A DNA stretch of 64,000 bases, from positions 32,001 through 96,000 of the IMG/VR virus record IMGVR_UViG_651053023_000001; one strand, 5' to 3'. Position 1 is the stretch's first letter. Each line of letters opens with the position of its first letter. Made by a program: the position numbers. Source of the DNA: a virus (lineage: Duplodnaviria; Heunggongvirae; Uroviricota; Caudoviricetes). Shown one piece after another: positions 16,201 to 19,200 of this stretch.

Positions 16201-19200
16201 AGCAATAGGTTAACAAAAGAAAAAAACCTGCCAGCAAACTGGCAGGTTTCTGAGCAGATCGTCCAACCCGATCTGGATCGAGTCAGAAAAATTTGCTCTA
16301 ATAAATTTCGTTTTCTAAGTGCAAAGAATCACCATTTCGAGCTGGTGATTGAAGGTTGATGCAAATTTGGAGAAAAAATGCAACAAACATTCAATGCGGA
16401 TATGAATATATCAAACCTTCATCAAAATGTCGATCCTTCAACCACTCTGCCCGTTATTTGTGGTGTTGAAATTACGACCGACCGCGCTGGCCGTTACAAC
16501 CTTAATGCTCTACACAGAGCGAGCGGACTCGGTGCCCATAAAGCGCCAGCTCAATGGCTAAGAACGCTGTCAGCTAAACAGCTCATCGAAGAGCTTGAAA
16601 AAGAAACTATGCAGAATTGCATAGTTTCGTTCGAAGGCCGTGGCGGCGGCACTTTTGCCCATGAATTGCTCGCAGTGGAGTACGCTGGTTGGATTTCTCC
16701 CGCGTTTCGGCTGAAGGTAAACCAGACATTTATCGACTATCGAGCCGGAAGATTACAACCTGCTATTCCGCAGAGTCTCCCTGAAGCTCTCCGTTTGGCT
16801 GCCGACCTGGCAGAGCAAAAGCAACGGCTGGAACAAAAAATGCTTATGGATGCACCTAAAGTCGAATTCGCCGAACGCGTTGCTACCGCCAGCGGGGTTC
16901 TAATCGGCAACTATGCCAAAGTGCTCGGTCTGGGCCAAAACTATCTCTTCACCTGGTTGCGTGATAACGGAATTCTGATCGCAACCGGTGAACGCAGGAA
17001 CGTCCCCAAACAAGAATACATATCCCGTGGGTATTTCACCCTTAAAGAAACCGTGATCGATACAAGCAATGGAATCAGGATTTCTTTCACGACTCGTATA
17101 ACCGGCAAAGGTCAGCAGTGGCTGATGAAGCGATTGCTTGATACTGGTGTGCTGGTACCTGTCGCGGCAACGCGCTAACAGACGTAGTAAGAACCACCAG
17201 CATTGTAATGCTGGCTAAAGTCACTTTCCTGAGCTGTATAACGATGAGCGATTTTACTTTTTCTGGCTATGAATTGGCCTGCTTTGTAACACACTCCGGT
17301 CTATCCCGTAGCGCCGGGCATATCCTGTCGCAATGTGCAAATCTAGCGGCAACAACCAGTGAATACTTCATTCACAAGCCTCACCGCCTGATCGCGGCAG
17401 AAACTGGTTATAGCCAATCAACCGTCGTTCGTGCATTCCGTGAAGCTGTAAACAAAGGAATTCTGTCTGTAGAGATTGTTATCGGCGATCACCGTGAACG
17501 TCGCGCTAACCTGTACCGGTTTACACCATCCTTTTTGGCCTTCGCACAACAAGCCAAAAATGCGCTGATTGAAAGCAAATTAAAGATCTCTTCAGCGGCA
17601 ACCAAGGTTAAAGCTGTTCTCGCTAAGACATTGGCTTTATTTAATTTTTTATCCACACCCCCATGTCAAAATGATACCCCCTCCCCCTGTCAGGATGACG
17701 TGGCAATAAAGAATAAGAAGTCACAAGTTAAAAAAACAGAAAGATCAGTTTCCGGCGGTGCCGGAACGACCAGGCTCAAAAATTTGACTTCCTGGATCGC
17801 TGAGGCAAAAGCAAAGGCTGACAATCTGCGGTTATCCAAAAAACGCGCTCAAAAACATGAGTTCAAGCAGAAAGTAGAGGCGGCAGCGCGGAAATATGCT
17901 TACCTGAAGAACAAGCGTTCTCCTGATATTGGCGGGGTATCAAACTTCGATAATCTGCCGCATTGCATGACGGTAAACGAAGCTCTTAATGCGGTTTTAG
18001 CCAAAAATAAAGATAACGAACAATGGGGTATACCGGCAGGATTCAGAGGGTGATAGATTGCTCTAATCTGGAGTCACCTGGCGTTTTCAGTTTGAGGTCG
18101 GAGATGCAATCTGATTTTTTACAGTTAGCGATCGCTTTTGCAGGATATGTTTGTATTGGCTTCTGTGTATACATGATCAGCCGAAAAATGCTTGTCGATA
18201 TCGACCGCAAAGAACAAGCAGAGGAGATCTTAGAATGGATTTTCTTTGGCGCGGTCTGGCCATTAGGGATCATGTTTGCTGCAACATTTCTTCTGATGTG
18301 GATATTCACCCTTCCAGGTGATTTCTATAGAAAAAAAGCCAGACATTGATACAATCGTTGCGGGTGCTTGAGGCTATCAGCTTCAGGCATTACCCGAAAA
18401 GCAGATAGAAGAAAGCCCCAGATAACATTACGCGTCCTGCAAGACGCTTAACATTAATCTGAGGCAATATCTATGCTTAGCATACGTAGATTAGCCTCTT
18501 ACCGACCAAAAGGTCAAGGAGTAGCAGGCTATGAAGCAGCAAAAAGCGATGTTAATCGCTCTGATCGTCATCTGTTTAACCGTCATTGTGACGGCACTGG
18601 TAACGAGGAAAGACCTCTGCGAGGTACGAATCCGAACCGCCCAGACGGAGGTCACTGTCTTCACAGCCTACGAATCTGAAAGGTAAGAGACCTGGCGGGG
18701 AGAGATCCTCGCCACTCTTCGTGTGTCAGGTATCCTCAATGCACCCTTTCCTCTCCAAATAAAAAAGCTCCCGAAGGAGCTTTAAAATACAAGGGATGAC
18801 TCTTAATCCCACTCAATCCAGTTGTAGACGATACGAAGTGACGGGCGCACAGCGGCAGTCACATCTTCGGTACTAAAGTCGATTGCATCACTGTAGATTT
18901 TGCAGTCCAACATTTCAATTGTTGTAGCAGCTTTTGTCACAGCGTTAACCCCGGAAGATTTGGATTCAGGGGTCGCAGCCATCGTGATATCAACATAGTC
19001 CTTCGCCGCAATGCGATCTTTAATGAACTGAAGAATATCGCCTTCGATAGTCTCCACGCACTGGACCTGGATTTCCCCAGAGTTTCGAATTGGACCGTGC
19101 TGGTTGAACTTCACACCATTCGGACCATAGTCCTCCACATCCTCGCGGGTCATTTCAGGAATTTGCGACGTGCGAACCAGTACGCTGATATCTTCATGGC

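Follow-up and report, generated by a model that had tools for sequence, protein, structure and literature searches.

A hok/mok/sok type I toxin-antitoxin locus between repL and bplB of a P1-like phage-plasmid

Introduction

Among the type I toxin-antitoxin systems, hok/sok is the founding member. Here we describe a locus of this type in a 64,000-nucleotide stretch of viral DNA (Caudoviricetes; IMG/VR record IMGVR_UViG_651053023_000001, positions 32,001 to 96,000), which is called the window below and to whose first letter all coordinates refer unless another sequence is named. In a blastn comparison with NC_005856 the window proves to be part of a P1-like phage-plasmid: apart from several replaced segments, it follows P1 33899-87670 collinearly, with an identity of about 97-99%. 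The locus at 18328-18790 is very probably an intact hok/mok/sok module which works by the mechanism of its homologue on plasmid R1, and by its sequence it is assigned to the hokD/hokW subgroup. All of its parts are present and intact, are homologous to those of known loci and have conserved pairing potential, so that the toxin gene, the leader frame and the antisense component proposed by an earlier sequence-only reading are all accounted for. That reading had placed the module at 18440-18790. The right end stands, but the left end has to be moved outwards to about 18328, since the promoter and the start of the hok transcript occupy 18328-18362.

The toxin gene and the mok leader frame

The toxin gene, hok, is a 51-codon open reading frame (ORF) with an ATG start on the plus strand, 18531-18686. 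Its product, MKQQKAMLIALIVICLTVIVTALVTRKDLCEVRIRTAQTEVTVFTAYESER, has a single N-terminal transmembrane helix and matches the Pfam family HOK_GEF (PF01848) over the entire profile (positions 1-42 of 42) with 71.9 bits (cut-off 22, E = 3.1e-20). It also matches PHROG 251, 'MokW-like host killing', with 107.6 bits (E = 4.6e-31), and the identical coding sequence is annotated by PGAP as hokD (WP_001313475.1). The Shine-Dalgarno (SD) sequence of the gene, AAGGAG at 18516-18521 on the plus strand, is recognized both in the sequence and in the alignment of homologues.

The mok leader frame, found in the ORF list, comprises 68 codons on the same strand. It begins with the ATG at 18473, ends at 18679 in the +1 frame relative to hok, and thus spans the hok SD as well as the hok ATG at 18531. 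The coordinates of both frames are exactly those given by the sequence-only reading. The SD of mok, GAGG at 18461-18464, lies 8 nt upstream of its start codon and is the same in 32 of the 33 diverged hok loci that make up alignment A1, on which the structure tests described below were also carried out, with slid alignments as controls. The mok frame has no match in a Pfam profile search.

Across the 33 loci, the SD and the start codon of mok are conserved by position while the reading frame is variable. A mok-type ATG reading into hok is present in 26 of them, at the aligned position wherever this was checked. It is in frame with hok in phage 933W, in most relatives of the hokD/hokW type and in the IncFII R1-type copy, and out of frame in the window locus and in two Kluyvera loci. 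An out-of-frame mok was considered as a conserved trait and rejected, because in most relatives, including the R1-type copy, the mok ATG is in frame. The frame is seen to flip between close relatives through single-nucleotide indels, and an in-frame start (for example L001 1616-1828 and L051 394-609 in the alignment) would yield an N-terminally extended Hok. In the work on R1, translation of mok as far as the hok SD is required, whereas the Mok product is not (Le Rhun et al. 2023, PMC9841398). The variable frame is consistent with translation, rather than its product, being what matters.

The hok mRNA and its regulatory elements

The predicted hok promoter occupies 18328-18355 on the plus strand and consists of a -35 box TAGAAA (18328-18333), a 16-nt spacer and an extended -10 box TGATACAAT (18347-18355). 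In the promoter scan it has 9 of 12 consensus matches plus the TG. In every homologue the conservation of the module sets in at this -10 box, whose position puts the transcription start at about 18362, where both the Rfam model and the R1 transcript begin. The homology of all full-length loci extends from this -10 box and GGGTGCTTGAGG to a point directly after GCACCC. These limits, shared by the 33 loci, define a 385-nt core of the mok-hok transcript, 18362-18746. The true 3' end probably lies slightly beyond 18746, at or before a hairpin at 18764-18783.

Every regulatory element that has been defined for the hok/sok locus of plasmid R1 can be located on this RNA. The tac element, GGGUGCUUGAGG (18362-18373), is paired with the 3' end in the minimum-free-energy (MFE) fold and has the ucb box as its alternative partner in the Rfam structure. 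The ucb or anti-SD box, AAGCCCC as defined in PMC9841398, is found at 18413-18419. The dcb box, GCCUC at 18494-18498, can pair with the GAGGC of the mok SD region and corresponds to helix 3 of the Rfam structure. Downstream of hok there is a GC-rich 3' stem-loop with a 9-bp stem at 18693-18714, which is seen in the MFE fold, carries compensatory changes and would cap the active mRNA that results from 3' processing. The last element is fbi, CCUCAAUGCACCC (18734-18746), which pairs with tac.

The roles of these elements have been worked out for R1. In the full-length R1 hok mRNA, tac and fbi form a stem that joins the two ends and ucb covers the mok SD. Once the 3' end has been trimmed, a tac/ucb stem and an SD/dcb stem are formed instead, and the 3' stem-loop guards the trimmed form. 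The nascent RNA makes a metastable 5' hairpin, and dcb is placed under the Sok promoter (all PMC9841398).

Where the sequence-only reading had noticed one hairpin after the toxin ORF, there are two: the stem-loop at 18693-18714, and a terminator-type hairpin, AAAGCUCC-CGAA-GGAGCUUU, at 18764-18783. The latter starts 17 nt past fbi and belongs to the P1 backbone, as homology to canonical P1 resumes at 18761. The terminator scan reports it on the minus strand only, where it is well suited to terminate the bplB operon. On the plus strand it is weak, its GC core being followed by UUU only. In homologous hok loci, unrelated terminators are found 5-17 nt past fbi.

The Sok antisense RNA

The Rfam model RF01794 (sok) matches 18362-18536 with 109.7 bits (gathering score 59, E = 5e-24) and is covered in its entirety. 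The model describes the hok-mRNA strand from the first bases of the transcript to the hok AUG, that is, the leader that contains the Sok target, and Sok is the reverse complement of part of this region. When the annotated sokW of phage 933W is transferred through the alignment, a Sok RNA of about 70-74 nt is predicted on the minus strand, with its 5' end near 18481 and its 3' end near 18408. In the predicted RNA, about 17 single-stranded nucleotides at the 5' end are followed by a long, imperfect hairpin and then by a U-rich tail, UUUCUUC. The RNA folds with -31.2 kcal/mol (z = -5.1) and is complementary to the ucb box, the mok SD and the mok start codon.

A promoter for this RNA is predicted on the minus strand at 18517-18488, with a -35 box TTGACC (18517-18512), an 18-nt spacer and a -10 box TAATCT (18493-18488). 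It aligns column by column with TTGCCT/TAACCT in 933W and with TTGCGC/TATCCT in the R1-type locus. The generic promoter scan overlooked it, because its -10 box fits the consensus at only three of six positions. The sequence-only reading, which left Sok undefined and would have been refuted by the lack of a sok-like promoter or a complementary RNA, had guessed at the minus strand around 18440-18530. The promoter and the 5' part of Sok do lie there, and the remainder of the RNA extends beyond this range to about 18408.

RNA folding and covariation

The 385-nt RNA folds with an MFE of -148.8 kcal/mol (z = -7.37), and its first 12 nt are paired with its last 13, so that the long-range tac/fbi pairing anticipated by the earlier reading is present. 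The duplex itself has an energy of -19.8 kcal/mol, and nucleotides 1-14 find their best partner in the whole transcript at the 3' end. All 33 homologues have such a duplex of their ends, with -16 to -26 kcal/mol. These ends were paired sequence by sequence, as loci of the Photorhabdus type are devoid of the 1-nt bulge and the tac/fbi register of the window does not fit across a single alignment. The two ends covary: alignment columns 4 and 429 hold UA in 19 loci, CG in 11 and UG in two, and other clades have the variants GAGA/UCUC and GAAG/CUUC.

In the same fold, the GCC of ucb (18415-18417) is paired with the GGC at 18463-18465 in the mok SD region, forming the base of the target hairpin. 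These pairs can be formed in 32-33 of the 33 loci, and the six pairs above them, in the Sok-target hairpin, have changed on both sides in a compensating manner. The 3' stem-loop shows compensatory changes in four of its nine pairs. For the full-length structure as a whole, 85% of the cells are paired, against 38-44% in the slid controls, and 44 pairs have changed on both sides, against 15-27.

The open form presents a different picture. Its seven tac/ucb pairs and five SD/dcb pairs are invariant, each being pairable in 31-33 and formed in 32-33 of the 33 loci, respectively. They are therefore compatible with the R1 model and contribute zero covariation evidence. The SD/dcb stem arises spontaneously when tac/ucb is imposed. 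A nascent 40-nt fragment is predicted to form a local 5' hairpin and a 140-nt 5' fragment to adopt exactly the open Rfam structure, both of which match the R1 model (PMC9841398).

Relatives of the module

The conserved unit, 18350-18746 (397 bp), is 85-90% identical in megablast to the annotated hok/mok(/sok) loci of Rac, 933W and many Stx and lambdoid phages. It is matched in 4736 of 5426 complete E. coli genomes, at a median of two places per genome, mostly on the chromosome and under the PGAP name hokD. A scan across species gave 46 loci in Escherichia, Shigella, Kluyvera, Citrobacter, Photorhabdus, Erwinia, Pantoea and others. The close relatives of the module reside mainly in prophages rather than on plasmids. 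The window copy is full length, whereas hokD of K-12 is a 5'-truncated relic that matches only the 3' 57% of the unit (query 168-397).

The cassette and its place in the P1-like backbone

The locus is situated between repL (17208-18053, plus strand) upstream and bplB (18803-19312, minus strand) downstream, the latter followed by pmgG (19324-19905, minus strand), which agrees with the location between the lytic replicon and the tail genes given by the sequence-only reading. It forms part of a 693-bp cassette, 18068-18760, which by blastn replaces 1826 bp of canonical P1 (51586-53411) with the genes rlfA, rlfB and pmgF. At the left junction the C1 operator Orlf/Op55 (18057-18073) is interrupted behind its first 11 nt (ATTGCTCTAAT, 18057-18067), and the cassette begins there. 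As the operator is reduced to these 11 nt, C1 control downstream of repL has probably been lost in this lineage.

The first gene of the cassette, 18104-18349 on the plus strand, encodes a predicted membrane protein of 81 amino acids (PGAP WP_001369095.1). It belongs to PHROG 3772, of unknown function, whose match (178.7 bits) is aligned to residues 28-108 of a mechanically called 108-residue ORF. This longer ORF, from 18023, probably starts too early. The 81-residue protein has no Pfam or PADLOC match, and the Pfam search likewise gave none for the 108-residue ORF, RepL and BplB. The 81-residue ORF is almost confined to plasmids, which hold 523 of its 529 places in complete E. coli genomes, and some plasmids retain only its 3' part beside hokD.

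Neither the module nor Hok has a blastn or tblastn match in the whole 94.8-kb canonical P1 genome, NC_005856, in agreement with the earlier remark that such a module is not known as part of canonical P1. The locus is nevertheless not unusual for P1-like elements. At a coverage of 80% or more of 18000-18800, the cassette, joined to repL and bplB by the same two junctions, is found with 95-100% identity in at least 263 PLSDB plasmids, mostly non-mobilizable E. coli plasmids of 90-118 kb, whereas the canonical rlfA-rlfB-pmgF segment is found in about 100. Among the P1-like plasmids sequenced, the hok cassette is thus more common than the canonical segment, and the element belongs to the common lineage in which rlfAB-pmgF is replaced, not to canonical P1. 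The left part of the cassette occurs in 523 of the 5426 E. coli genomes, nearly always on plasmids, and the cassette is also carried by the phages phi456, MH422554 (annotated MokW), MH445380/1 and Ro157c2YLVW.

The locus is already known, in that hundreds of public records of P1-like plasmids and phages list it, as a matter of routine, under the names hokD or MokW. None of the literature searched names hok/sok in P1-like elements, and its sole trace there is the description of the substitution as '2 orfs including antibacterial toxin' (Venturini et al. 2019). What the coordinates given here add for annotation is the precise position of the unannotated RNA parts: Sok, the Sok promoter, tac, ucb, dcb and fbi.

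On the related P1-like plasmid pTLYA-3 (NZ_CP137165.1, 2499-4257), the same hokD cassette has a truncated upstream membrane ORF, and an IS421 element separates hok from bplB. In pSvP1 an IS186B insertion has been reported at the same spot, and the site seems prone to the integration of insertion sequences (IS).

Proposed mechanism

By combining the elements of the locus with the model established for R1, it is possible to propose how the module would operate. The promoter at 18328-18355 would give rise to a stable hok mRNA. In the full-length RNA, tac (18362-18373) would pair with fbi (18734-18746), and ucb (18413-18419) would mask the mok SD (18461-18464). This closed form would be neither translated nor bound by Sok. 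Slow trimming of the 3' end, up to the stem-loop at 18693-18714, would then strip off fbi, allowing tac to pair with ucb and the leader to refold. The mok frame would be translated from 18473, and the ribosomes moving along it would open the way to hok at 18531.

As long as the element is kept, the short-lived Sok RNA (18481 to 18408) would bind to the refolded leader over the mok start, resulting in a block of translation and decay of the mRNA; in the hok/sok family the duplex is degraded through RNase III. If the element is lost, or its transcription is shut off, Sok would be the first to disappear, the 51-residue membrane toxin would be made and the cell would die.

Biological role

The most likely role of the locus is that of a second, RNA-based addiction module of the plasmid prophage, beside phd/doc and par. 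Post-segregational killing, which the sequence-only reading had suggested, would be the outcome of the mechanism described above. That at least 263 plasmids have kept the cassette, with 95-100% identity, is counted as a sign of selection. It is probable that phage-plasmids of this type have hok/sok and phd/doc as two addiction modules independent of each other, which would have a bearing on the persistence of these carriers of resistance genes.

Several points weigh against this picture, at the level of both the parts and the role. The NCBIfam hidden Markov models for Hok, that of HokA included, match the toxin ORF below their curated cut-offs (46.3 against 73 and 35.8 against 89). The weakness of the plus-strand terminator after fbi makes the real 3' end of the hok mRNA uncertain. 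The activating tac/ucb switch of the trimmed RNA is plausible, but the energy model fails to reproduce it: in a 3'-truncated RNA of 355 nt, the open form has -124.8 kcal/mol, 7.5 above the MFE of -132.3 kcal/mol, and the MFE fold retains the closed leader, with ucb on the SD, together with the local 5' hairpin. We infer the transcription, RNA half-lives, processing, toxicity and plasmid stabilisation of the window copy. Related hokD-type loci are present in the 4736 E. coli genomes mentioned above, with a Sok hairpin that is 96% identical, and their resident Sok RNAs might dampen killing by the window hok. Pedersen and Gerdes reportedly described in 1999 intact chromosomal hok homologues that gave no measurable plasmid stabilisation. 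Finally, a benefit in addition to the existing partition system and phd/doc of P1-type elements can only be presumed.

A working hok/sok may also have been selected for a role other than addiction, namely defence or competition. An infecting lytic phage that shuts off host transcription would cause Sok to decay and Hok to kill the host before the cycle of the invader is completed (abortive infection); alternatively, the module might be of use to the element while it is itself being induced. This explanation is possible, although we do not consider it probable. It calls for the same molecular parts, all of which are intact, and the hok/sok of R1 is said to exclude phage T4, as reported by Pecota and Wood in 1996. 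The close relatives of the module are mainly prophage-borne, where segregational loss poses no obvious problem, and the cassette replaces what is a hypervariable accessory region in P1-like elements (PMC9603915). On the other hand, PADLOC has no model that matches Hok or the 81-residue protein, and nothing in the sequence separates defence from addiction, two roles that are not exclusive.

It is rather unlikely that the locus is an intact but neutral, selfish hitch-hiker, whose killing is neutralised by the Sok of resident hokD/hokW prophage loci or is too weak beside par and phd/doc. The abundance of these loci, at a median of two places per genome, and the 96% identity of the Sok hairpin would fit such an explanation, and the truncated hokD of K-12 shows that loci of this kind frequently decay. 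Against it stand the intactness of every element and the conservation of the cassette in so many plasmids. Furthermore, the five chromosomal Sok RNAs of K-12 gave no protection against the hok of R1 (PMC9841398). The target of the Sok 5' tail is the most diverged part of the module, about 62% identical to the prophage copies compared with 85% overall and 96% in the adjacent hairpin, which argues against cross-neutralisation, although relaxed constraint could be another cause of this divergence. One may speculate, with considerable doubt, that the 81-residue ORF and hok/sok together are a selected replacement and not a passenger, and that the diverged Sok segment makes the module a second, orthogonal addiction or abortive-infection system, adapted to hosts full of related Sok RNAs.

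That a mere 51 codons and some hairpins resemble such a locus by chance, as might be argued from the Sok promoter missed by the generic scan and the terminator flagged on the minus strand only, is refuted by the profile matches (E = 3e-20 in Pfam, 5e-24 in Rfam and 5e-31 in PHROG), the full-length homology to hundreds of annotated loci and the compensatory base changes, and its probability is negligible.

Other features of the window

The P1-like nature of the backbone is confirmed by parts of the P1 immunity RNA at 14698-14750 and 14819-14904 (plus strand), which comprise the C4 antisense RNA and its a1/b1 targets, and by three tRNA genes on the plus strand, 36282-36354, 36360-36432 and 37867-37939, at the positions of trnA, trnT and trnI of P1. 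Segments unmatched in canonical P1 are found at 13247-14622, 29698-31523, 56998-61685 and 62024-62906; they are located at the sim region, at about 64.35 kb of P1 and in the pmgT-hot region. The segment 56998-61685 includes an Ead/Ea22-like ORF, 57511-58248.

A cluster of IS elements, 50750-55625, is located at about P1 83811-83814 (pap). It contains two near-identical copies of an IS3-family element in direct orientation, 3566 bp apart, each with an ALIL frameshift pseudoknot (51087-51203 and 54653-54769, 119 bits each) and ORFs of the HTH_Tnp_1 and rve types. The two copies flank transposase fragments of the IS66 and Mu/rve types.

Comparison with known systems

The cassette has kilA-repL to its left and bplB-pmgG-21 to its right, and canonical P1 (NC_005856) and P7 have the same flanks, with 96-98% identity. 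Between these flanks, P1 and P7 have 1826 bp with rlfA (which encodes a DUF3800 protein), rlfB and pmgF under the C1 operator Orlf, whereas the window has the 693-bp cassette with the 81-residue ORF and hok/sok, and the operator is cut in half.

The type II module of P1, phd/doc, is similar to hok/sok in its presumed outcome, the death of cells that lose the plasmid prophage. The two are unrelated in sequence and mechanism, as phd/doc employs a protein antitoxin that is degraded by ClpXP and hok/sok an unstable antisense RNA. The phd/doc genes lie at P1 88046-88647, and the window is without them because it ends at P1 87670, about 375 bp ahead of phd. In P1-like phage-plasmids, phd and doc rank with the most highly conserved genes, and rlfA-rlfB-pmgF is a hypervariable region (PMC9603915).

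The hokW/mokW/sokW locus of 933W and the hokD (relF)-type loci of lambdoid and Rac prophages in E. coli are the nearest relatives. Their Hok proteins are 88-96% identical to that of the window, and they share with it tac, ucb, SD, dcb and fbi. As noted above, the Sok hairpins are nearly identical too, in contrast to the target of the Sok 5' tail. These loci are carried by integrated lambdoid prophages, here by a P1-like plasmid prophage, and the window copy borrows its terminator from the P1 backbone. With respect to 933W, a 1-nt insertion in the window (GGTCAAGG) sets mok in the +1 frame, and the Sok promoter of 933W has the -35 box TTGCCT and a 17-nt spacer instead of TTGACC and 18 nt.

The hok/mok/sok (parB) locus of R1 and the IncF plasmids is the experimentally defined archetype. 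Its function has been tested in R1. The R1 locus belongs to another Hok subgroup and is aligned only weakly by nhmmer, with 114 bits compared with 350-390 bits within the subgroup. The Sok hairpin of the window is longer, and its tac/fbi duplex extends over 12/13 positions with one bulge, compared with 7+2 pairs in the R1 type. In spite of these differences, the length of the transcript to the end of fbi is nearly the same, 391 nt in R1 and 385 nt in the window, and the order of the genes and the set and order of the RNA elements are identical: tac, ucb, the Sok target hairpin, the mok SD and ATG, and dcb overlapping the Sok promoter are followed by hok, the 3' stem-loop, fbi and a terminator.

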